Source of the DNA: a virus
Length of the DNA: 40,349 nt
Direction: 5' to 3' (one strand)
Virus record (IMG/VR): IMGVR_UViG_3300037882_000094
Location: 1-40,349 of that record
In this document: piece after piece, positions 4,604 through 28,480 of the stretch
How the letters are laid out: each line of letters begins with the position of its first letter
Position numbering within the stretch: position 1 is the stretch's first letter
The notes under the pieces: model-generated
The model's database searches: none
What the model was told of the DNA's origin: nothing
The model's input: the letters and a program-made list of their open reading frames with translations, nothing else
Made by a program: the position numbers and the translations under genes

Positions 4604-5767
4604 TTAGAAGTTACCTTTAGACTGTTGTCCTAAAGATACTTGGGTTGTGCCAGCAGAGCCTTTAAATGCTGCTTTCTCTGCTTCTTCGGCTTTCTTTCTA
4701 CGTTCAGATTTCAAACCTAAGAATGCTTCTTTCTGAAGTTCTTCTTGAGTTGCTGCTTGGGTTTGATATCTTTCGGCAAGTGTTTGTGCTTGTGGTTCTA
4801 TTTGAGCAAGTGTTTGGAATCCTTGTTGACCTGCAGCATAAGTGTTACTTACACCAGCTTCAGATAACAACTTCTCAACTGCGCCGATACGTTCTTCAGG
4901 AAGAGTGTATCTAGCAGCAGTAGCTCCAGCACGTAGTTGTGCTCTTTTAATATTTGATTCAAGTTTCATTGCTGGATTCTCACCAGACAAAATTGCTTCG
5001 GCAATTTGATTTCTTTGAACTAATGGATCTCCAACACCATATTGGCTGAAGTATCTTCCTAATTCATTCTTAACATCATCTGAGGCATTATCAATCTTAT
5101 TGAAGACATTATTGATTCTATCTTGTGTTTCTGCTGGAGATACCCCACCAGATATTAGTTTAGAAAATGTTTGCTTGTTTGCTAGTCCAGATAAGTTATT
5201 AGCATTTAATAAGTTTGCATAAGCTTCTTCAGCTTGTAAGTATTCTGCAGGAGAATATGCTGGTAGTCCTTTAGCGATTCTTCCTTCATTGCCTTGAAAT
5301 CTAGTTTTATAAGTTGGAGTATTACGAAGTTGTAATGTTGCTTCTGCTGCACTTAAACCTTGTTGTAAGTACTTCTTAATTTCAGGAACTAATTCTTCTA
5401 AGTTATATGCTTTGAATGTATCTTCTAAGATTGCATAAGCACTACGGCGTTCTGCTTCACTTTGAGCTTGAGCATAAGCAATACCTGGATCAACTACATT
5501 TCCTGTAGTAGGTGTTGTACCTTGACCTGCTGGAGTTCCACCTGCAACGCGAGCATTAGCATCAAGTCTTGATTGTAAAGTTCCAAGAAATGCTACAGGA
5601 TTTGTTTTAGCTGTAATGCTAGATACATTATTTCTAATAAAGGCTAACTCATTATTGCTAAGACCTTCACCAGTTTTAGTTGCTTGAGCAATAACTTTTG
5701 CTGCAGCAGGATTAGCTTTGGCAATTGCTTTAGCTTCTTGAGCATTCTTCTTATAATCAGTTGCCAT
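4604..5767 (-). CDS. Virion internal/ejection-type protein (387 aa, function unknown)
   Basis: Track ORF. Ala/Gln-rich, helical, with no enzymatic motif. It lies between the portal and the scaffold. Confidence 0.5.
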   Translation of the reverse strand: MATDYKKNAQEAKAIAKANPAAAKVIAQATKTGEGLSNNELAFIRNNVSSITAKTNPVAFLGTLQSRLDANARVAGGTPAGQGTTPTTGNVVDPGIAYAQAQSEAERRSAYAILEDTFKAYNLEELVPEIKKYLQQGLSAAEATLQLRNTPTYKTRFQGNEGRIAKGLPAYSPAEYLQAEEAYANLLNANNLSGLANKQTFSKLISGGVSPAETQDRINNVFNKIDNASDDVKNELGRYFSQYGVGDPLVQRNQIAEAILSGENPAMKLESNIKRAQLRAGATAARYTLPEERIGAVEKLLSEAGVSNTYAAGQQGFQTLAQIEPQAQTLAERYQTQAATQEELQKEAFLGLKSERRKKAEEAEKAAFKGSAGTTQVSLGQQSKGNF

Positions 5768-6952
5768 TTACATAAATCCCAACTCTGATAAAACTTGAGT
5801 ACTAAAAGTTGCAGCCTTTTCCCTAAACTTAGGGGTGTATTCTGCACCTGGTTTTGTTCCTAAATAATTTTGCCATTCGTCATAGCTTGGAAGTTTTTGT
5901 TGTTGAGATAACCATTTAACATCTGGATCATCCCAAGGGTTTGGAGATAATGATGGAACACCATAGAAATTTGCTTTGAATGATTGATATCCACCAAGTA
6001 CTTCAGATGGTTTATAGCCTGCTTCAATATATGGAGCTAATGCAGGATTTTGTAAAGCAGATAGTTTTTGAATCTTTAATGCAGTATCCTGTAAACCAGT
6101 CTTACTCTTAGCAGTATTTAAAAGATATTCAAGTCTTGTCTTAGGATCTATCTTAACATTATAGTCTGACAATAATGTATCAACTTGTTTTAGGTTAGTT
6201 CCTAGTTGTCCACCAACATTAGCTAATCCTTCAACGGTTACATCTTTACCAATTAAACTTAAAGCAACTTGTTCTTTATCGGCTTCGTCTACACCAGCTT
6301 TAGTTACTACTGTCCTAGTTTTACCACCAGAGGTAGTTGTAGTTTGAGTTTGTACATTTGCTTTTTCTGCAGCATTAAGTTTATTATAAAACTCTTGTGC
6401 TTTCTTTGGATCAGCAACTTGACCTGTTAGATCTGTATAGAACTGATTAAAGTATTGAAGTGCTTCTTGCTTGCTTGTTAGATAGAGTGTTTCATAAACA
6501 GATGCTCCGCCTTTGCCACCTTGCACAGCAGAGTTATCAACGAATTGAGCAATGTCACCTGGTGCGCCAGCAGGATTAGCAACTACTAAAGTTGAATAAG
6601 CATCCCAAGCATCAAGAACTGCTTTTCTATAGTTATCAACTTGTTGCTGAGTATCTAATCTACCATTGGCTTTTATGTTCTTATAGCCAGCTTTAATGAA
6701 TTGATTTTGGACTACTTTAATCTTTTCAGGACTTTGATCAAAGAATAAGGCAAGAGCAGCTTGTTGAGTTACTGGAACCACTTCGGTAATTAATTGATTA
6801 CCTGAATATCTTTTTACAACTTGGTAATAACTTTTACCAGAGGTAGCACCTGTTGCTGTTGGAACAGGAGGCAATGCTTCTGCTGCATCGTCTGGAGTAA
6901 TAACTGGTTGATTAGTTATATCGTCAAGACCGTCTCCGTTTAAGTCTGCCAT
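5768..6952 (-). CDS. Virion internal-type protein (394 aa) with an N-terminal DLNGDGLDD Ca-binding-like motif
   Basis: Track ORF, contiguous with its neighbours with no gap. The N-terminus MADLNGDGLDD resembles DxNGDGxxD calcium loops. Confidence 0.5.
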   Translation of the reverse strand: MADLNGDGLDDITNQPVITPDDAAEALPPVPTATGATSGKSYYQVVKRYSGNQLITEVVPVTQQAALALFFDQSPEKIKVVQNQFIKAGYKNIKANGRLDTQQQVDNYRKAVLDAWDAYSTLVVANPAGAPGDIAQFVDNSAVQGGKGGASVYETLYLTSKQEALQYFNQFYTDLTGQVADPKKAQEFYNKLNAAEKANVQTQTTTTSGGKTRTVVTKAGVDEADKEQVALSLIGKDVTVEGLANVGGQLGTNLKQVDTLLSDYNVKIDPKTRLEYLLNTAKSKTGLQDTALKIQKLSALQNPALAPYIEAGYKPSEVLGGYQSFKANFYGVPSLSPNPWDDPDVKWLSQQQKLPSYDEWQNYLGTKPGAEYTPKFREKAATFSTQVLSELGFM

Positions 6953-17735: not shown

Positions 17736-18098
17736 ATGAAGAAGCAATTAACAGAAGAAGAACTACGACAGAAGCGCGAATACTTAAAAGAATTAGTCGC
17801 GATAACTAGCGACTATCTCGAGAAGTACGGCGATATAGAGAGAGTCGTGAAGTTATCGAATGTAGAAGAGCCTTACTCTGCTCGCAATTCCTTGCTAATA
17901 AAGCTTCAAGATCCAGGCGCGACAATATGCGCAGGGTTCTTAGAGTGGAAGAAGCAGGGTAGAAGCGTTAAGCGTGGCGAGACTGGGCGAATAATCTTAG
18001 TTCCGATAATCTTTAAGAATAATAAGGAGGAAGATAAAGTTAGATTTAAGTCGGACTATGTATTCGATATTAGCCAGACAGAAGAACTAAGTATCTAG
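17736..18098 (+). CDS. ArdC-N-like (DUF1738-type) ssDNA-binding / putative anti-restriction protein
   Basis: YSARNSLLIKLQ...GFLEWKKQGRSVKRGETGRIILVP...FKSDYVFDISQTE parallels the ArdC N-domain pattern Y.G.N.LLL...W.TFKQ...G..VRKGEKG..I...VFN..Q. There is no metalloprotease half. Confidence 0.6.
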   Translation: MKKQLTEEELRQKREYLKELVAITSDYLEKYGDIERVVKLSNVEEPYSARNSLLIKLQDPGATICAGFLEWKKQGRSVKRGETGRIILVPIIFKNNKEEDKVRFKSDYVFDISQTEELSI

Positions 18099-18861: not shown

Positions 18862-19476
18862 ATGCCTAACTGGTGCAGTAATAGCTTAGAGATTAGATCA
18901 ACTAGAGAAGATCTTGAAGCTATAAAGAAGCAAGTGAGCAAGTCATATATTCATAAAGGGTTCACACTTAAATTCAATACTGAGCTTAAGGAGTGGAAGA
19001 GGGAGTGGCACGAAGAAGATACTGGAGAACTGGTCTTCTCATTCCAGAATATAATTCCAATGCCAGATGAAAAGAATAAAGATGAAGACTGGTATCGGTG
19101 GAGATTAGATAACTGGGATACTAAGTGGGACTCTAGCGAGACTATCCTTAATGAAAAGGATAACTCTCTAATCTATACATTCGATACGGCGTGGAGTCCA
19201 CCTATGAATGTGTATTTTGAGTTATCTAAAAAATATCCACAAGCTACTCTAATGGTTAGCTATGATGAACCAGGAATGAGCTTCTATGGAATGCACATAA
19301 TTAGGAATGGAGAAGAATTAAGTGTCATTCAAGGAGATATGTCTCACCTATCACATAAGCTAATGGGTGAAGAGTGTATGTGTGAGGGTTTGGACGATAC
19401 GGAAGCTGACGAAGCTCCCTACATAGATTGTCCAATAGTAAGAACAACTAATAAGGAGGCAATAAACAATGGGTGA
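18862..19476 (+). CDS. DUF1281 / Api92-like ferredoxin-fold protein
   Basis: The N-terminus MPNWCSNSLEI..., the NWDTKWD motif and ...FDTAWSPP... match my recollection of the DUF1281 family (MPNWC.N.L, WGTKW). Confidence 0.6.
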   Translation: MPNWCSNSLEIRSTREDLEAIKKQVSKSYIHKGFTLKFNTELKEWKREWHEEDTGELVFSFQNIIPMPDEKNKDEDWYRWRLDNWDTKWDSSETILNEKDNSLIYTFDTAWSPPMNVYFELSKKYPQATLMVSYDEPGMSFYGMHIIRNGEELSVIQGDMSHLSHKLMGEECMCEGLDDTEADEAPYIDCPIVRTTNKEAINNG

Positions 19477-20450: not shown

Positions 20451-20686
20451 AGAAGTGCGAGAATGTAATTAACATAACACCAGATAGATTATTATTACCT
20501 AGCTATAAAGGAATGAAAATCATCTCGCAATACACAGATGAAGATCAAGATTATATTATCTTGCAATGCTGTAAAGAAGCAGATCAAGCGTGTTTCTCTT
20601 GCTGTTCAATAGTCTGTAAAGAATGCAAGTATGAGCACGAAGAATGCGAGGAAGAGGTGAAGAAGAGTGTGGTGTCTAGCCTGTAA
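20447..20686 (+). CDS. Cys-rich hypothetical protein (79 aa)
   Basis: Track ORF with an ATGA overlap. Contains QCCKEADQACFSCCSIVCKECKYEHEEC. Confidence 0.6.
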   Translation: MKKCENVINITPDRLLLPSYKGMKIISQYTDEDQDYIILQCCKEADQACFSCCSIVCKECKYEHEECEEEVKKSVVSSL

Positions 20687-20798
20687 TGGCAAGGGATACA
20701 TAACTAACTTCATAAATAAATCTTCTATATGCCTATTGTGTAGAGCAACTGGGTATCTAGATGAGCAAGATGAAACAACTAATAAGGAGGAGCAGTGA
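20667..20798 (+). CDS. Mini-protein with two DnaJ-type CxxCxGxG zinc knuckles (43 aa, GTG start)
   Basis: Hand translation checked: VWCLACNGKGYITNFINKSSICLLCRATGYLDEQDETTNKEEQ. Confidence 0.5.
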   Translation: MWCLACNGKGYITNFINKSSICLLCRATGYLDEQDETTNKEEQ

Positions 20799-20956
20799 AA
20801 GAATATAAAGTTATAGTAAAAATGGATACAGAAGTAATTAACTTAAAGGCTAAGAATGAACACGAAGCTTTACTATTAGCGCGTGATTCTATTGCCTATG
20901 ATTACAACGAGGATCTAGCTGAGTCTTGTGATTATGAAGTCCAGGAGGTGAAGTGA
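20795..20956 (+). CDS. Early mini-protein (53 aa, GTG start)
   Basis: Hand translation checked: VKEYKVIVKMDTEVINLKAKNEHEALLLARDSIAYDYNEDLAESCDYEVQEVK. AGGAGG lies 4 nt upstream. Confidence 0.5.
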   Translation: MKEYKVIVKMDTEVINLKAKNEHEALLLARDSIAYDYNEDLAESCDYEVQEVK

Positions 20957-20958
20957 TA

Positions 20959-21144
20959 ATGAAGATTAAGATAACTTATTCTATGGTTTATGACATAGAT
21001 AAACTAATGCCAGAGATAAAAGCCTGGGGCTTAGATTATCCGATAACTTCTAACACCATAGAAGACTTCATTAAAGATCGCTTCATTAGTCCAGAGCTAT
21101 TAGATACTAACAAGCAAGCTAAGTTAGATCTGGAGTATCTATGA
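20959..21144 (+). CDS. Early hypothetical protein (61 aa)
   Basis: The track ORF starts at GTG 20953. The ATG at 20959 is better spaced from the GGAGG at 20944-20948. Confidence 0.55.
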   Translation: MKIKITYSMVYDIDKLMPEIKAWGLDYPITSNTIEDFIKDRFISPELLDTNKQAKLDLEYL

Positions 21145-21652: not shown

Positions 21653-22000
21653 TTAATACCAATTCCTCCTGTTATGGTGGCGTAAAGCTTCACAGCTAGA
21701 GCCGTCATACCTGGAGTCAATGTATCTAATACCTGCTTCTACCTGGTCTTGAAGTGTTGAGTCTTCTTTTGTTTTAAGAACCTGAAATAAACCATAAGCA
21801 CTAGACTTAGGATTGTCTGCTGACATATCCCACTTAGACTCACGATCTACTAGCTCATCAAGACATCTCCACTCTTTATCATTCCAACCTAATCCTCGGA
21901 CATAAAATCTGACATATGAACGAGAGGCTGGTGGCGACCAAGTGCGTACGAAAGGCTGGCTTTCGACAGGCAGGTCAATAGGTGGTATCAGAAATAGCAT
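21653..22000 (-). CDS. Lysozyme-like / SLT-type transglycosylase domain protein (actinobacterial type)
   Basis: The track ORF extends to 22048, but AGGAGG lies 4 nt upstream of the ATG at 22000 (MLFLIPP...). EWRCLDELVDRESKWDMSADNPKSSAYGLFQVL...GIRYIDSRYDGSSCEALRHH..RNWY matches the W.CL..L..RES.W...A.NPSS.AYG..Q...YI.SRYG..C.AW.H...WY pattern. Confidence 0.75.
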   Translation of the reverse strand: MLFLIPPIDLPVESQPFVRTWSPPASRSYVRFYVRGLGWNDKEWRCLDELVDRESKWDMSADNPKSSAYGLFQVLKTKEDSTLQDQVEAGIRYIDSRYDGSSCEALRHHNRRNWY

Positions 22001-22090
22001 TTGCCTCCTAACGTAGACCAGAATAGCACATAAAACGCGACACACCATAACAGTGTGTTGATTTTACAATAACCAAATAGTGTGCTACCC

Positions 22091-22126
22091 TAGCAAGCAA
22101 TTCGCTCTGAGGCGAATTGCTAGCTA
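22091..22126. promoter_or_regulatory. 15-bp imperfect inverted repeat in the divergent control region
   Basis: TAGCAAGCAATTCGC (22091-22105), tctgag, GCGAATTGCTAGCTA (22112-22126), with one mismatch. It is followed by two GCTATAGC palindromes (22123, 22138) and TATCAGC-N5-GCTGATA (22151-22169). Confidence 0.6.
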
Positions 22127-22217
22127 TAGCTAGCTATGCTATAGCAAAGCTATCAGCAACACGCTGATAACTTCTCCCACACTGGTTTGTGTGGTAAGAT
22201 CTTTCTGTCTGGGTCGT

Positions 22218-22270
22218 AGCTGTATCTCTTCCTCCTCCTTGAGGTACAGCTCCCCTCCTAAAGGAGGAAG
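22218..22270 (+). promoter_or_regulatory. Candidate SD-sequestering structure (hairpin plus loop-to-SD pairing) ahead of the middle operon
   Basis: AGCTGTA (22218-22224) pairs with TACAGCT (22245-22251). Within the loop, CTTCCTCCT (22228-22236) is the exact complement of AGGAGGAAG (22262-22270), which is the ribosome site of the ATG at 22275. Confidence 0.45.
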
Positions 22271-22274
22271 TACA

Positions 22275-22481
22275 ATGATTGAAATTGATGATTACAAAAT
22301 CCCTGAGCACGTTAGTTATTCTGCATTCACAACTTGGTTAGAGTGTGGATGGTTATACTTTCTATCAAGGATTGTAGACACACCAGAAGTACCAGCTATC
22401 TGGAACTTAGGTGGATCAGCAGTTCATAAGGCAACAGAACTTTATGACTTGAGAGAATGGGAAGCATCCAAAAATGTATAA
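22275..22481 (+). CDS. RecB/Cas4-family nuclease, N-terminal fragment (68 aa)
   Basis: ATG at 22275 after AAAGGAGGAAG; the track ORF starts upstream at GTG 22191. HVSYSAFTTWLECGWLYFLSRI carries the N-terminal Cys of the Cas4 cluster, followed by GGSAVHKATE (motif I-like). Confidence 0.65.
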   Translation: MIEIDDYKIPEHVSYSAFTTWLECGWLYFLSRIVDTPEVPAIWNLGGSAVHKATELYDLREWEASKNV

Positions 22482-22863
22482 CGAACAAGAGTTCTTTGAT
22501 AAGTTAAAGCTAATCATTCCTGATCTAGTTAAAAGTGATAATAAGTTTTCCACTAATGACTGCACATCAGAACAACTTGGTGCATACATAGAACTTAAAT
22601 GTCGAAAGACTCACTACGATACTTTGCTAATCGAATACAGCAAGTATGCCAGGTTATTAGAAGAAGCAAGCACTAAGAGATTAGTTCCTGCTTACTTCAA
22701 TGCCACACCAGAAGGTGCTTGGGGATTTAATTTATTAACTATGGATGTTGAGTTTGCAGAACAAAATAATCTTCCTGCAACTACAGACTTTGAGAATAAA
22801 GAAAAGGTAACTAAGATAGTTGGTTACTTACCTATTGAAAAAGGATTCAAGTTATGGTCTTAG
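22474..22863 (+). CDS. Inserted ORF (129 aa) with a PD-(D/E)XK-like D-x10-E-x-K motif; candidate free-standing homing-endonuclease-like gene
   Basis: Track ORF in the +1 frame relative to both nuclease fragments, overlapping each of them (ATGTATAA and ATGGTCTTAG). Motif ...STNDCTSEQLGAYIELKCRKTHYDTLLIEYSKY... Confidence 0.45.
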   Translation: MYNEQEFFDKLKLIIPDLVKSDNKFSTNDCTSEQLGAYIELKCRKTHYDTLLIEYSKYARLLEEASTKRLVPAYFNATPEGAWGFNLLTMDVEFAEQNNLPATTDFENKEKVTKIVGYLPIEKGFKLWS

Positions 22864-23507
22864 ACATTCAAGATATATGGCGTGAAGCTTGGGACTATGA
22901 ATCTAAAGATAGAGGCTACGACAAAGTAGCTAAAGAAGATTTCAGGAAATCAGTAAGAACAACAAAAGCAAATCCAGATGGTGAGGACTACGATTGGTGG
23001 TTCAACAATGGTATTGACTTTGTTAACTCTTGGATTAACTGGAAGAAAAATTCTGGTTGGAAGATCTGGGAAACACCTAATGGAGATCCAGCTATTGAAC
23101 TTGGTTTAACACCAAAGTTTGATAACACTCTTGTCAAGATGGTTCTTGATAGAGTGATGGTTAATCCTGAAGGTGAATTAATTATCCTGGATATTAAGAC
23201 TGGAAGGAACACTCCATCATCTGACCTACAGCTTGCGTTTTACGCTGCTGGAATGGAGCAGACATTCGGAATTAGACCTCGTTGGGGAACCTACTGGATG
23301 GCTCGTCAAGGTGGTACTGGTGTTCCATTAGATCTTGATTTAGTACCTACTTCTACTGTAGAATATTTAATCAAGGAATTTAACAGAGCAAGAAAGGCTA
23401 ACTTATACATTCCTAACTTAACCAATTGCAAGATGTGTTCTCGGACAGAATATTGCAAGTGGAGGAATGGATCGTTAGCACACACAATTGGAGAAATGAA
23501 TGGCTAA
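22854..23507 (+). CDS. RecB/Cas4-family nuclease, C-terminal fragment (217 aa)
   Basis: VLDRV (motif II), LIILDIKTG (motif III), QLAFYA, and C-terminal CKMCSRTEYC (C-x2-C-x5-C). It is in the same reading frame as the N-terminal fragment. Confidence 0.8.
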   Translation: MVLDIQDIWREAWDYESKDRGYDKVAKEDFRKSVRTTKANPDGEDYDWWFNNGIDFVNSWINWKKNSGWKIWETPNGDPAIELGLTPKFDNTLVKMVLDRVMVNPEGELIILDIKTGRNTPSSDLQLAFYAAGMEQTFGIRPRWGTYWMARQGGTGVPLDLDLVPTSTVEYLIKEFNRARKANLYIPNLTNCKMCSRTEYCKWRNGSLAHTIGEMNG

Positions 23508-23937
23508 TACAACAGAAGCAACATATTCCTTTACCACAAAAGTTAATGGAGATCTATTAACAGTTAGAGGAAATACTAAAGATGAGTTTGCACTTAACCT
23601 TGCAAGCTTGCACGATGATCAAGTGTTAATTGAAATGATTAATACATTACAACAAAAGTTTAAACCAACTTCTGTTGCAGAGATTCAAGCTGCATTTAAT
23701 GGAACTATAATTCCAGATCCATTATCTAGTAAGCCAACTCCTCCTGCACCAGTAAGACCTGCTGGCTTTAATCCAGCTCCAACTAATGCACCGACTGGTG
23801 TCGTACCAATGTGCGAACACGGACCAATGCGTTTTGTTAAGGGTGGAATATCTAAGACAACAGGTAAAGGATATCCAGCATTCTATTCTTGCTCAATGCC
23901 TAAAGGGCAAACGCAATGTAAGAGTGTGAATGCTTAA
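23500..23937 (+). CDS. Hypothetical DNA-associated protein with a C-terminal zinc ribbon (145 aa)
   Basis: Track ORF. A Pro-rich linker is followed by MCEHGPMRFVKGGISKTTGKGYPAFYSCSMPKGQTQC, which resembles a topoisomerase-type C4/CHCC ribbon. Confidence 0.5.
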   Translation: MANTTEATYSFTTKVNGDLLTVRGNTKDEFALNLASLHDDQVLIEMINTLQQKFKPTSVAEIQAAFNGTIIPDPLSSKPTPPAPVRPAGFNPAPTNAPTGVVPMCEHGPMRFVKGGISKTTGKGYPAFYSCSMPKGQTQCKSVNA

Positions 23938-25226: not shown

Positions 25227-25562
25227 ATGGTTAACCCAAGTAAAAATAAAGGCACAGCAGCAGAGACTGCTGTTGTTAACTATCTTAAAAACACTTGGGA
25301 GACTGTTGAAAGAAGAGCACTGGCTGGAAGTCTAGACAAAGGGGATGTCTCTGGCATCCCTGATGTCTGCATAGAAGTTAAAGATTGCAAGAAAACAGAA
25401 CTACCTAAATGGACTAGAGAGTTAGAACAAGAAATGAAAAACTCTCAAGCATTAACTGGTGCAATCATACATAAAAAACGTGGCACACTTGATGTTGGAC
25501 AATGGTATGCTACTATGCCAGTAGAAGTTTATATTAATTTATTAATAGAAGCAGGTTACTAG
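25227..25562 (+). CDS. Holliday-junction resolvase-like PD-(D/E)XK nuclease (Hjc-like, actinophage type)
   Basis: KGTAAETAVVNYL..., GDVSGIPDVCIEVKDCKK (D...E-x-K), and HKKRG...W. Confidence 0.7.
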   Translation: MVNPSKNKGTAAETAVVNYLKNTWETVERRALAGSLDKGDVSGIPDVCIEVKDCKKTELPKWTRELEQEMKNSQALTGAIIHKKRGTLDVGQWYATMPVEVYINLLIEAGY

Positions 25563-25571
25563 GAGGAAGTA

Positions 25572-25934
25572 ATGGATAAGCCACCAATAACTGAGGTGCT
25601 TAAACATTACGGAGCAAAGAACGTTAGAGAAGATGTAAGAGGATGGCGCAAGATTTGTTGCCCCTTTCACAACGACTCAATAGCTTCTGCTACTTACTCA
25701 ACAGAAGCAGATGCGTTTAATTGTTTCGGTTGTGGAATTAAAGGCGACAGTTATAAGATTATTATGGAGAGAGAAGGGATAGGCTTTCGTGAAGCTTACT
25801 TATTCGCAGAAGAAACATTTGCAGGAAGCAGTAGAGAAGTACAACCAAAATCTATCTCTGGCAGAAGATTACCTGTTGCAAAGAGGCTTGACTCTAAAAG
25901 ACGCAAACCGTTATTTGCTAGGGGTAGTGACTGA
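25572..25934 (+). CDS. DnaG-type primase, CHC2 zinc-finger part (frame 0)
   Basis: CCPFHNDSIASATYSTEADAFNCFGCGIKGDSYKII...GIGFREA. The tail after about 25815 looks like out-of-frame filler. Confidence 0.75.
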   Translation: MDKPPITEVLKHYGAKNVREDVRGWRKICCPFHNDSIASATYSTEADAFNCFGCGIKGDSYKIIMEREGIGFREAYLFAEETFAGSSREVQPKSISGRRLPVAKRLDSKRRKPLFARGSD

Positions 25935-26406
25935 TCCACTACCAGGACACGAACTTTATAAAGACAGATTAGTTATTCCCTACATCACTAGAACTGGCAT
26001 AGTTGATATCAGATTTAGATCAATGGATAACACTGAGCCTAAGTATCTGGGATTGCCAGGAGCTAGCACACATCTATTCAATGTGTCAGCTTTGTTCAGA
26101 GCTAATGATTGGATTGCTGTTTGTGAAGGTGAGATTGATACCATCACACTTGATGCCAAGGTAGGCTTTCCTACTATCGGAGTTCCAGGAGCAAACAACT
26201 GGAAGAAGCATTACTACAAGTTGCTAGCAGACTTTGAAAGAATCATTATCTTTGCAGATGGTGATCAAGCAGGGCAAGACTTTGCCAGACAGTTGGCAAA
26301 AGAACTAGGTACTGTTACAATTATCTCAATGCCAGAAGGCGAAGATGTTAACAGCATCTATGTTGCGAAGGGTGCTGATTATTTTAAATCAAAGGTGGCA
26401 TCTTGA
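25789..26406 (+). CDS. DnaG-type primase, RNA-polymerase/TOPRIM part (frame +1; overlaps the previous ORF by 146 nt)
   Basis: LAEDYLLQRGLTLKDANRYLLGVV, VCEGEIDTITL (TOPRIM Glu) and IIFADGDQAGQ (DxD). The track start is GTG 25789, and the frame is open from 25783. Confidence 0.75.
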   Translation: MKLTYSQKKHLQEAVEKYNQNLSLAEDYLLQRGLTLKDANRYLLGVVTDPLPGHELYKDRLVIPYITRTGIVDIRFRSMDNTEPKYLGLPGASTHLFNVSALFRANDWIAVCEGEIDTITLDAKVGFPTIGVPGANNWKKHYYKLLADFERIIIFADGDQAGQDFARQLAKELGTVTIISMPEGEDVNSIYVAKGADYFKSKVAS

Positions 26407-26756
26407 AAGATGAAAGAAGAATTTATATTTGTGATGAATGTGGTATAGAGTTTGATAACATATTTGATTACCTTGAAGAACACGAAACAGACTTCAAAGT
26501 ATTACTTCCTCTAGGAACTATAGCTTTAGACTTAATGGATATGTTAAAAGATTTATATGGTTTGATTAGAGACAAAGACTATGACACAGCAAAGATATTA
26601 TTAGCAGGTGTTGGTGCTGCATTTTATGCCCACGCCAATGGTGACTTGGAAGAGATAGTTGATGAGATAATTATTGAAGAAACAGTAGAGAAAGAAACTA
26701 AGAACTTAGACATAGAACTAATTAAGTTACTAGGTAAAGGAAATAAAGATGAGTAA
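26403..26756 (+). CDS. Acidic hypothetical protein (117 aa, TTG start)
   Basis: Track ORF. The TTG overlaps the primase stop (cTTGA). It has an N-terminal CDECGIEF......L.EH element. Confidence 0.5.
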   Translation: MKDERRIYICDECGIEFDNIFDYLEEHETDFKVLLPLGTIALDLMDMLKDLYGLIRDKDYDTAKILLAGVGAAFYAHANGDLEEIVDEIIIEETVEKETKNLDIELIKLLGKGNKDE

Positions 26757-27060
26757 GTTTGATATTCCAGTAGAGCTAGAACAATTTTATAATGATGTAG
26801 TTGAAATTACTAATGCAAATGTATTGCTATTAGTTAAGAAACAAAAAGACTATGGTTCAAAGAATATATCTCAATCACCTGGTGGACCATTGAATGGATT
26901 AAGAGTGAGAATGTTTGACAAGCTTGCTCGCATTAACAATCTAGTTGAAACAGGTGCAACACCAGAGAATGAGTCATTAAGAGATTCGTTTATGGATATA
27001 GCTAATTATGCAACCATCGCCTTGATGGTTCTTGATGGCAAGTGGGAAGGCTCTGAATGA
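26749..27060 (+). CDS. DUF1599 / MazG-like all-alpha NTP-pyrophosphohydrolase superfamily protein
   Basis: KKQKDYGSKNI...L.VRMFDKLARINNL......ENESLRDSFMDIANYATIALMVL fits the DUF1599 pattern as I recall it. Confidence 0.55.
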   Translation: MSKFDIPVELEQFYNDVVEITNANVLLLVKKQKDYGSKNISQSPGGPLNGLRVRMFDKLARINNLVETGATPENESLRDSFMDIANYATIALMVLDGKWEGSE

Positions 27061-27812
27061 AAAGAGTAGTTGTCTTATCTGATATGCAAATACCATTGCA
27101 TAACAAACCAGCAATAGAAGCAACAATAAAGTTTGTGAAAGACTATCAACCAGACCAATTATTTTGTGTTGGTGATGAAGCTGATTGTTTAGCACCAGCT
27201 AGATGGTCTAAAGGATATGTTGCAGAACATTCAAACTTACAAAGAGATCTTGATGAAACTACTCGTATTATGGGTAGGTTTCGTAAAGCAATTGGGGATC
27301 GTGAATTTCATTTAATGAGATCAAATCACGGAGATCGCATACAAAGATACATTGAACGCGATGCGCCAGCCCTTGCAACATTAAGAGATTTAAAGTATGA
27401 AAAGCTTTTAGGTTATCGCGATCTTGGTATTACTTATCACAATAAATTGTGGGAGTTTGCACCTGGTTGGGTTATGGGTCACGGCGATGAAGGATCAAGT
27501 AGTAGATACAGTGGTGGCACCGCGATGGCATTAGCTAAAAAGATTGGTATGTCTGTAGTCTGTGGGCATACACATAAGCAAGGATTAATCCATACTAATA
27601 CTTCCTTTAATGGAAGATACACTTCAAGTCTTTATGGTTTTGAAGTTGGAAACATTATGGATTTAAAGCAAGCTACATATCTCAAAGGTGGCTCTGCAAA
27701 TTGGCAATCAGGTTTTGGAATACTTTATATTGATAAAGGTAAAGTAACACCAGTGCCAGTGCCAATGATTGGTAATTCATTTGTCGTGGAGGGGAAGATA
27801 TATAAATGGTAA
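27057..27812 (+). CDS. Calcineurin-like metallophosphoesterase
   Basis: VVLSDMQIPLHN, CVGDEADC, SNHGDR, GHGDE and CGHTHKQG blocks in the canonical order. Confidence 0.8.
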   Translation: MKRVVVLSDMQIPLHNKPAIEATIKFVKDYQPDQLFCVGDEADCLAPARWSKGYVAEHSNLQRDLDETTRIMGRFRKAIGDREFHLMRSNHGDRIQRYIERDAPALATLRDLKYEKLLGYRDLGITYHNKLWEFAPGWVMGHGDEGSSSRYSGGTAMALAKKIGMSVVCGHTHKQGLIHTNTSFNGRYTSSLYGFEVGNIMDLKQATYLKGGSANWQSGFGILYIDKGKVTPVPVPMIGNSFVVEGKIYKW

Positions 27813-27829
27813 AAACTGAATAGGGTAAA

Positions 27830-28480
27830 ATGAAACTAGATCACGAATTAATAGAAGAATATAATTACTTAGTCACACGAATCGCCAATGATTACAATAG
27901 AAAATATAAGATGGTTCCCAGAGATGATATCAAACAACAACTCTGGTTATGGTTTATTGAACATCCCCATAAAGTAAAACAGTGGACTGATATGGAAGAC
28001 AAAAAAGAAACAACTAAATTGTTTGCCAGATCTTTACGCAATGCTGCTCACGACTATTGTCAAAGAGAGAAAGCATACTCAGCAGGATTTAATATAGAAG
28101 ATAACTTTTATTACCAAAGAGATATGGTTGAAGTATTATTGCCAGCAGTTATTAGTGGTGATAGAACAATAGGATCTTCAGCAGATCTAAACCTAGGTGT
28201 CTCAACTGGTAAAGCACCAGCAGAGGGTGGCAACTGGATGGTGTATCTCATTGACATTGAGAAAGCATTCAACAAAATTCCAGAGCAATATCAAAATGTG
28301 CTACACCTTAGATATGCAGAGAACCTGTTAGGCAATGACCTAAGTTCAGTACTCAACTGCTCTCCAGATGCAGCACGAAAGAGAGTAGATAAAGCTTTAA
28401 GAAAGCTGATTCAAGAGCTTGGTGGCTTTAGACCATACAAAGATCACGATGCTAAAGTCCAGGAAGAATCTGCAGAATAA
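27830..28480 (+). CDS. Sigma-70-family (ECF-like) sigma factor
   Basis: Region 2-like ...DIKQQLWLWFIEHP... and region 4 HTH ...QNVLHLRYAENLLGNDLSSVLNCSPDAARKRVDKALRKLIQEL. It is the last gene of the middle operon. Confidence 0.7.
   Translation: MKLDHELIEEYNYLVTRIANDYNRKYKMVPRDDIKQQLWLWFIEHPHKVKQWTDMEDKKETTKLFARSLRNAAHDYCQREKAYSAGFNIEDNFYYQRDMVEVLLPAVISGDRTIGSSADLNLGVSTGKAPAEGGNWMVYLIDIEKAFNKIPEQYQNVLHLRYAENLLGNDLSSVLNCSPDAARKRVDKALRKLIQELGGFRPYKDHDAKVQEESAE

Follow-up and report, generated by a model that had tools for sequence, protein, structure and literature searches.

A putative bipartite Cas4-type phage exonuclease whose two genes flank a changing slot, held here by a predicted Hjc-fold nuclease gene

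Introduction

In T4-like phages, genes are known that lie in two pieces around a free-standing endonuclease gene: mobE sits in nrdA of Aeromonas phage Aeh1, and mobA between genes 60 and 39 of T4 (PMC2988022). Gene 43 of Aeromonas phages 25 and 44RR is divided into 43A and 43B; one of the two phages has a seg gene in the split and the other does not, and the authors of the review caution that the seg endonuclease may have invaded a gene 43 that was already split (PMC2988022). Here we analyze a gene in pieces in the IMG/VR virus record IMGVR_UViG_3300037882_000094, positions 1 to 40,349; this whole stretch of 40,349 nucleotides (nt) is referred to as the window. Three plus-strand open reading frames (ORFs) stand there in tandem with overlapping stop and start codons, as read directly from the sequence: exoN and exoC, which match the two ends of a Cas4/RecB-family exonuclease, and between them ORF129, a gene for a small predicted nuclease. 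We propose, with a probability of roughly 70 percent, that exoN and exoC encode a naturally bipartite, selectively maintained Cas4-type exonuclease, that the boundary between them is a hot spot for mobile small genes, and that in the window this slot is held by a nuclease of Hjc fold.

The locus resembles the split genes of T4-like phages in that an essential enzyme of DNA metabolism would be made in two polypeptides whose genes enclose a small nuclease gene, in that the cassette has no promoter and its start overlaps the upstream stop, and in that different cassettes swap in the same slot of related phages. Split forms without an endonuclease gene occur too, as for gene 43 and here on a much larger scale, and the order of events is ambiguous. 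Unlike the T4-like cases, the host gene encodes an iron-sulphur (Fe-S) exonuclease of the Cas4/RecB family, and the cassette is neither HNH nor GIY-YIG but a minimal PD-(D/E)XK protein of predicted Hjc fold lacking a separate DNA-binding domain. The slot, moreover, also takes genes that bear no nuclease signature, most members of a large old clade (to about 41% identity) have the split, and homing is in this case a proposal drawn from gene distribution.

Intact phage exonucleases of the Cas4 family (phrog_1870, PDDEXK_1/Cas_Cas4) share with the two pieces their motifs, their four cysteines, their total length and a place next to gp49-like and DnaB-like genes of an L5-like replication module. 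Mycobacterium phage A10ZJ24 gp62 and P. acnes phage Gp37 are each a single polypeptide, whereas here the first cysteine and motif I reside on a protein of 68 amino acids (aa). In actinophages the Cas4 exonucleases also harbor inteins, which lie in frame at motif III and are spliced at the protein level (10.1101/2025.01.02.630785). Thus the same host gene family is recurrently targeted by selfish elements, yet in the window the intervening gene is a separate ORF in another frame, sits in the loop after motif I and leaves two proteins. Neither a bipartite Cas4-family exonuclease nor the ORF129 family turned up in the literature that could be searched, where absence is no proof of novelty.

Results

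The first ORF, exoN (68 aa; 22275..22481, plus strand), begins with an ATG at 22275, 5 nt downstream of a strong Shine-Dalgarno-like sequence (AAAGGAGGAAG; 22259..22269, plus strand), and ends with a TAA at 22479-22481; it contains SYSAFTTWLECGWLYF and GGSAVHKATE. ORF129 (129 aa; 22474..22863, plus strand) starts over the exoN stop codon with an overlap of 8 nt (ATGTATAA; 22474..22481, plus strand), and exoC (217 aa; 22854..23507, plus strand) starts over the stop codon of ORF129 with an overlap of 10 nt (ATGGTCTTAG; 22854..22863, plus strand), an AAGGA motif lying 8 nt upstream of its ATG. To judge by these overlaps, translation of ORF129 is probably coupled with that of both pieces, and the gene is probably co-transcribed with exoN and exoC; no plus-strand terminator-like site was found between the three ORFs. 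Likewise, no direct or inverted repeats were found flanking ORF129, so that it has no transposon-like ends. Its GC content is slightly lower than that of its flanks (0.35-0.36 versus 0.39-0.41), a difference that is not diagnostic. Re-reading of the sequence bore out everything the initial annotation had said of the letters themselves, that is, coordinates, motifs, overlaps and the D-x10-E-x-K pattern of ORF129. A longer exoN from a GTG at 22191 was considered and is unsupported, because all homologous N-terminal pieces begin at a MIEID-type methionine. Upstream of exoN, in the divergent intergenic region that separates it from a minus-strand SLT-like gene, overlapping palindromes cluster at 22091-22152 of the window (e.g. 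TAGCAAGCAATTCGC / GCGAATTGCTAGCTA), and this cluster may be an operator or promoter region.

We find that the two outer ORFs correspond to different parts of one enzyme. In profile searches exoN matches PHROG 1870 'exonuclease' (313 positions) at 11-66 with an E value of 7e-8, and exoC matches it at positions 77-291 with an E value of 3e-47; the profile check proposed for the 68-aa fragment thus found Cas4-type similarity. The Pfam family PDDEXK_1 is matched at its positions 1-49 by exoN (15.4 bits, below the 22-bit cut-off when alone) and at its positions 124-246 by exoC (27.5 bits, above the cut-off). Against Cas_Cas4 exoC scores 22.4 bits, just short of the 22.7-bit cut-off, and it also matches the Cas4 and DruK models of PADLOC. 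Two fused metagenomic homologues, P0114 (273 aa) and P0120 (311 aa), can be aligned over their full length to exoN followed by exoC. Alignment with these intact forms, which the initial annotation had suggested for finding the insertion point, reveals a clean break between exoN and exoC with zero residues lost or duplicated. An AlphaFold2 model of P0114 (predicted local distance difference test, pLDDT, 86) has helices at 43-63 and 73-88, and the break maps to the loop that joins them, 64-72. In the PDB this model most resembles the Cas4-family protein ACE1, the nuclease domains of AdnAB and AddAB, Dna2 and Cas4; a sequence-only PDB search with P0114 returned nothing meaningful.

The functional residues are complete and are shared out between the two polypeptides (residue numbers are those of each ORF). 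The exoN product carries the first Fe-S-type cysteine, C23 in LECGW, together with the motif I helix GGSAVH...E, and both C23 and the histidine of GGSAVH are present in all 14 aligned N-terminal pieces or fused sequences. The exoC product carries motif II (D99 of LDRV), motif III (D113-x-K115 of LDIKTG), QLAFY (Q126...Y130, within QLAFYA) and C192-x2-C195-x5-C201 (CKMCSRTEYC); D99, D113, K115, Q126, Y130, C192, C195 and C201 are invariant among the aligned homologues. Hence all catalytic motifs (I, II, III and QhxxY) are present, I on exoN and the rest on exoC, and the four-cysteine 4Fe-4S pattern is complete with its ligands on two polypeptides, in agreement with the original claim that a Cas4/RecB-type nuclease is divided here in both its cysteine ligands and its catalytic motifs. 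The summed length of 285 aa (68+217) is, as claimed as well, like that of intact phage exonucleases (279 aa in A10ZJ24 gp62, 306 aa in Gp37). Whereas a Cas4/RecB exonuclease would be expected as a single polypeptide, two ORFs are found here and in more than 100 homologue clusters. Among five near-identical genomes dN/dS is 0-0.12 for exoN, 0.03-0.20 for exoC and 0.06-0.20 for ORF129; each of the three genes is under purifying selection.

In AddB, Dna2 and Cas4, one N-terminal and three C-terminal cysteines bind a single 4Fe-4S cluster, which pins the N-terminus to the nuclease core. Given this arrangement, the cluster would hold exoN and exoC together and the active site would be composite. 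In such an assembly exoN would supply the first cysteine and the motif I helix, and exoC the D / DxK / QxxxY core and the C-x2-C-x5-C triad. The break is at the surface, in a loop that joins two helices. The polypeptides could reassemble, held by a 4Fe-4S 'iron staple' with ligands from both; by analogy with the known enzymes we infer that this reassembly takes place.

The two-piece layout extends far beyond the window. A protein-cluster search of a 5.8-billion-protein collection recovered 108 exoC-related clusters (41-94% identity, most 198-232 aa) and 23 stand-alone exoN-related clusters (most 65-71 aa, range 65-114). For a census of the junction, IMG/VR was scanned with the exoC alignment and the best 80 loci were examined; the tallies, given as totalling 83, count the window, L002 and one further entry besides these 80. 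No insert is present at 33 loci, where the ORFs overlap by 1, 4 or 8 nt, mostly in ATGA-type overlaps, or lie 8-40 nt apart. An ORF129-family gene occupies the junction at 13 loci, and a phrog_18407 gene, in two related forms of 157-171 aa whose function is unassigned in PHROG, at 20. An SLT-like gene is found at 3 loci, a DUF7004 gene at 1 and other small ORFs of 41-87 aa at 5; the exonuclease is fused at 1 locus, and 6 are cut by a contig end. Only three fused versions were found altogether, all of them distant (L100, P0114 and P0120), and at each of the 33 loci without an insert the gene remains in two pieces. Relative to exoN, exoC lies in frame 0, +1 or +2 depending on the lineage. In the window both starts are 0 mod 3, with 375 nt between the pieces, and the common frame pointed out in the initial annotation is therefore real and coincidental.

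A megablast search with the region found nothing among the INPHARED phages, where relatives came up by tblastn only. The only relatives among GenBank phages are OX376640 and OX376641, the cultured Planktophila phages E7 and F5 (PMC10202952), in which ORFs of 61 aa and 202 aa overlap by 17 nt with no insert. Because it is seen in these isolates, the insert-free split is not an assembly artefact. The window phage is probably a freshwater actinophage from the same family as the 'Ca. Planktophila' phages E7 and F5. The two-piece layout is common to a large clade, selectively maintained and independent of ORF129. Rhodococcus phage RGL3 presents a separate case: its Orf49, a 229-aa 'RecB-like protein' (L132, 1024-1713), starts at the motif I helix MGTAFHTAAE and lacks the N-terminal cysteine segment; its start may have been mis-called, or it may be one more variant that is split or truncated at the N-terminus.

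We next consider what lies at the boundary, which would act as a permissive slot, by lineage empty or holding one of several unrelated small genes. An exoC tree was built by neighbour joining (NJ), as were all trees here, and rooted with intact exonucleases of Mycobacterium, Rhodococcus and Propionibacterium phages; support is low at the deep nodes (bootstrap 48 for a basal P0120, 10 for monophyly of the split forms). Fused forms stand near its base, the insert-free split lineages form one large group, and all cassette-bearing lineages fall into a nested clade, clade I (bootstrap 70; 100 without the window lineage). Inside clade I, ORF129-bearing and phrog_18407-bearing lineages form sister pairs with bootstrap values of 94-100, which indicates repeated replacement of the cassette. 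Three loci with flanks 95-99.9% identical catch the slot in different states (compared regions L066 1859-2504, L069 1953-2205 and L074 1-143): L066 holds a 171-aa phrog_18407 gene, L069 a 41-aa zinc-finger ORF, and L074 nothing. In the empty slot of L074, exoN ends in NKMEQL*, the last six codons of the 171-aa cassette gene, and the ATGA overlap with exoC is recreated; this tail is a fresh deletion scar.

Other occupants are known from elsewhere in the window. The zinc-finger slot ORF of L069 matches window 20667-20798, the 58-aa slot ORF of L090 matches 20953-21144, and the SLT-like slot ORF of L128 matches 21653-22048 (minus strand); the slot therefore takes ordinary small phage genes and not nucleases alone. 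The phrog_18407-type cassette (157-171 aa) fills the slot in L055-57, L061, L065-73, L076-78, L102, L109, L112-113 and L116, and its invariant residues include E52, R89 and D103. A PDB sequence search with its profile found nothing meaningful. A relationship with ORF129 was considered and rejected (hhalign probability 0.2), and its PDVG..IEVR motif is unsupported as a PD-(D/E)XK mark; we make no such claim.

ORF129 is a conserved gene with a PD-(D/E)XK-like set of residues, as had been suspected from its D29-x10-E40-x-K42 motif. Across 22 close members E4, D29, E40, K42, E54 and K57 never vary; 32 more diverse sequences keep E40, K42 and K57 without exception and conserve E4, D29 and E54 to at least 90%. 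In the confident AlphaFold2 model (pLDDT 90.6, predicted template modelling score 0.81) E4 lies in helix 1, a strand opens at D29, and the strand after it carries E40-x-K42, which is the canonical PD-(D/E)XK arrangement. Foldseek ranks the archaeal Hjc structures 2wcw and 1gef first (template modelling (TM) score about 0.6, E 7e-4; 0.62/0.65 for 2wcw_B), followed by the DpnI catalytic domain and RecU. Hjc resolvases use a catalytic tetrad of the E/D/ExK type. Like archaeal Hjc (PDB 2wcw, 1gef, 1ob8), ORF129 is within about 120-135 aa, has a predicted alpha-beta-beta-beta-alpha-beta fold and presents its E...D...ExK set at matching secondary-structure positions; unlike Hjc, it has extra C-terminal beta strands, and structural alignments show 10-17% identity, with no detectable sequence similarity. 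We infer from the model that ORF129 is a minimal PD-(D/E)XK nuclease closest to the archaeal Hjc resolvases, and predict nuclease activity. The window also has a resolvase-type nuclease gene at 25227-25562 (phrog_244, E 1e-27), and ORF129 is therefore an additional nuclease.

Scans of Pfam, NCBIfam, PHROG and PADLOC with ORF129 and 31 diverse relatives assigned no family; ORF129 had no Pfam match, the Hjc profile included, at E<=1, and its profile found no match in a PDB sequence search. It belongs to none of the recognized homing endonuclease families (LAGLIDADG, GIY-YIG, HNH, His-Cys box, EDxHD or I-Ssp6803I-like). With I-Ssp6803I, a characterized PD-(D/E)XK homing endonuclease, it has in common that it is a small single-domain PD-(D/E)XK protein and, as proposed, a mobile-element nuclease; I-Ssp6803I, unlike ORF129, is intron-encoded; it is missing from the 50 best structural matches of ORF129, and a search for a sequence relationship found none. 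When 1.84 billion representative proteins were searched by profile, 735 ORF129-related clusters emerged at E<=1e-3, and most of the 150 best matches listed are single-domain proteins of 120-145 aa. The family occurs in at least 593 IMG/VR stretches. In 185,579 bacterial and archaeal genomes there are four matches, all on contigs of metagenome-assembled genomes (MAGs), one of them a Nanopelagicaceae MAG. The ORF129 family is large, unannotated and almost exclusively phage-borne.

Members of this family are found in at least five genomic contexts. Besides the exoN/exoC slot, phage E7 has a homologue (45% identity) 3.6 kb downstream of its split, between a DUF1599 gene and a sigma-like gene; in related actinophage-like contigs the gene follows a 190-220-aa gene and precedes a Zn-ribbon and methyltransferase pair; in other phages it lies between a 140-aa gene and a DUF3799 PD-(D/E)XK exonuclease; and it is also found at the end of a lysis module, after an amidase. 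Among close relatives ORF129 is present sporadically at one site, and in other genomes its family is found at other sites. In 73 of 79 newly fetched family loci there is no Cas4-like exonuclease within 9 kb, which argues against an obligate partnership. In an ORF129 tree the slot copies form a clade with bootstrap 100, save that of L079, which falls outside with the non-slot copy of E7; this suggests that the family entered the exoN/exoC slot at least twice, the alternative being fast evolution of L079. Judged from sequence and position, ORF129 is most likely a positionally mobile, free-standing nuclease gene of homing-endonuclease-like behavior and not a subunit of the exonuclease.

A few neighboring observations concern the same family. 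In L012 (3992-5109) and L039 (3944-6071), which are not actinophage-like, ORF129-family genes stand directly upstream of or near DUF3799, after a sigma-like gene and the conserved 140-aa gene; this neighborhood recurs and is clearly not obligate. The DUF1599/sigma-like boundary is another variable slot (window 26749-28480 versus L002 6215-7664), holding in the window a 251-aa metallophosphoesterase gene (27057-27812), where phage E7 holds its ORF129 homologue. Between the window and the near-identical L003-L006, dS of ORF129 (0.15-0.39) is generally greater than that of exoC (0.04-0.19), which hints at recombinational cassette exchange or at a history unlike that of the flanks.

Elsewhere in the window, the DNA primase is also encoded by two ORFs, a 120-aa DnaG zinc-ribbon ORF (25572-25934) and a 205-aa Toprim ORF (25789-26406), which overlap by 146 nt in different frames. 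The same layout is seen in L002 (4983-5372 / 5221-5847) and in the cultured phage E7, and it may reflect either another bipartite enzyme or programmed frameshifting. The early region, unrelated to the split, contains an ArdC-N-like (anti-restriction) ORF and a DUF1281_C/Api92-like ORF at 17736-18098 and 18862-19476, respectively.

Discussion

What divided the exonuclease gene? The initial annotation suggested that a homing-like gene had created a gene in pieces. On the one hand, ORF129 has turned out to act as a free-standing and positionally mobile gene would; on the other hand, the cause as it was stated is unsupported, 33 of the 80 relatives being split without an insert. Nor is the split tied to ORF129 in particular, as the same loop is also divided around unrelated cassettes, some of them not nuclease-like. 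A gene put in pieces by insertion would be contiguous in relatives that have no insert, and here these are split; that both halves were retained is apparent from dN/dS values of 0-0.2 and conserved motifs, from which their function is deduced. In a wider form the idea is possible, though we lean against it: a mobile nuclease gene, ORF129 or a predecessor, would have broken an intact exonuclease at the base of the clade, insert-free loci being losses and other cassettes replacements. Fused forms, P0120 and P0114 with L100, do exist near the base of the rooted tree, L074 demonstrates that a split gene with an ATGA overlap is what remains once a cassette is deleted, every member of clade I, in which the window lineage is basal, has a cassette or a cassette scar, and mobE in Aeh1 nrdA and mobA in T4 gene 39/60 provide precedents, as do endonuclease genes swapping in one slot (PMC2988022). 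However, the insert-free split lineages (clade II and E7) branch outside the nested clade I, monophyly of all split forms is recovered in only 10 of 100 bootstrap replicates, and nothing marks ORF129 as the first invader rather than phrog_18407 or something now lost. The order of events cannot be assumed, seeing that a seg gene may have entered an already split gene 43 (PMC2988022). A bolder version, in which ORF129 founds a new homing endonuclease family of minimal Hjc-type fold, it or a rival for the site such as phrog_18407 split the exonuclease, and the halves reassemble by the iron staple, we regard as speculative and rather unlikely.

The initial annotation had offered a three-subunit nuclease as its alternative. 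ORF129 could complete the exonuclease as its third subunit, or serve the same recombination pathway as a dedicated nuclease for particular DNA structures (a resolvase or flap nuclease), its place between the pieces ensuring co-expression. Its Hjc-like fold and conserved catalytic set would suit such a part, as would its strong purifying selection, tight translational overlaps and long residence in the slot, and the family stands near a different PD-(D/E)XK exonuclease, DUF3799, in the unrelated phages L012 and L039. Yet most relatives have no ORF129 in the slot, 33 of 80 being without any cassette and about 30 having unrelated ones; the E7 homologue lies 3.6 kb away, 73 of the 79 fetched loci have no such exonuclease nearby, and the window already has its phrog_244 resolvase-type nuclease. 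We therefore consider a partnership improbable. Far less credible still is that the locus yields one polypeptide or one mature mRNA, by way of an intron containing ORF129, an intein, or a programmed frameshift or bypass, or that it is a decaying pseudogene. The pieces do share a frame in the window, and actinophage Cas4 exonucleases are known hosts of inteins (10.1101/2025.01.02.630785); but those inteins sit at motif III, elsewhere than this break, and the entire gap is taken up by ORF129 in a different frame, the exonuclease frame having stops there, which excludes an intein. A group I or II intron is very unlikely because no Rfam family matches 21900-23700 at E<=1 and the gap is filled by ORF129. 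A frameshift fusion is unable to span inserts of 340-500 nt, and the relative frame of the pieces varies, insert-free relatives, among them two isolates, keeping separate overlapping ORFs. Pseudogenization is excluded by dN/dS values well below 1 for each ORF, and more than 100 clusters consist of stand-alone pieces.

We return to our preferred reading, a bipartite exonuclease whose boundary is a hot spot for mobile small genes. Several points weigh against it. Association of the exoN and exoC products and binding of the Fe-S cluster are deduced from the conserved ligands, and the homing-like mobility of ORF129 from its distribution. The 80 loci of the census are those most similar to the window, which biases its proportions. 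Between lineages the slot copies of ORF129 are 48-62% identical, similar to the 47-53% of the flanking exonuclease, and such divergence fits long vertical residence as well as repeated invasion. Finally, the cassettes that are not nucleases show that illegitimate or modular recombination can fill the slot with no endonuclease involved.

We know of no earlier example of a Cas4/AddB-type iron-staple nuclease with its Fe-S ligands and active-site motifs on two polypeptides. If true, this natural fragment complementation would bear on the purpose of the cluster, namely structural stapling. The analysis also exposes a large phage nuclease family, outside Pfam, NCBIfam and PHROGs, with a confident Hjc-like model. 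Annotation pipelines would list a 'hypothetical' protein of 68 aa and a truncated exonuclease of 217 aa, and we advise that the two be annotated as a pair. Natural alleles are plentiful, fused, split and empty, or split with at least six cassette types, making the order of events and homing itself directly testable. The pattern of a split gene with a free-standing nuclease cassette would thus extend from T4-like myoviruses to small, abundant freshwater actinophages.

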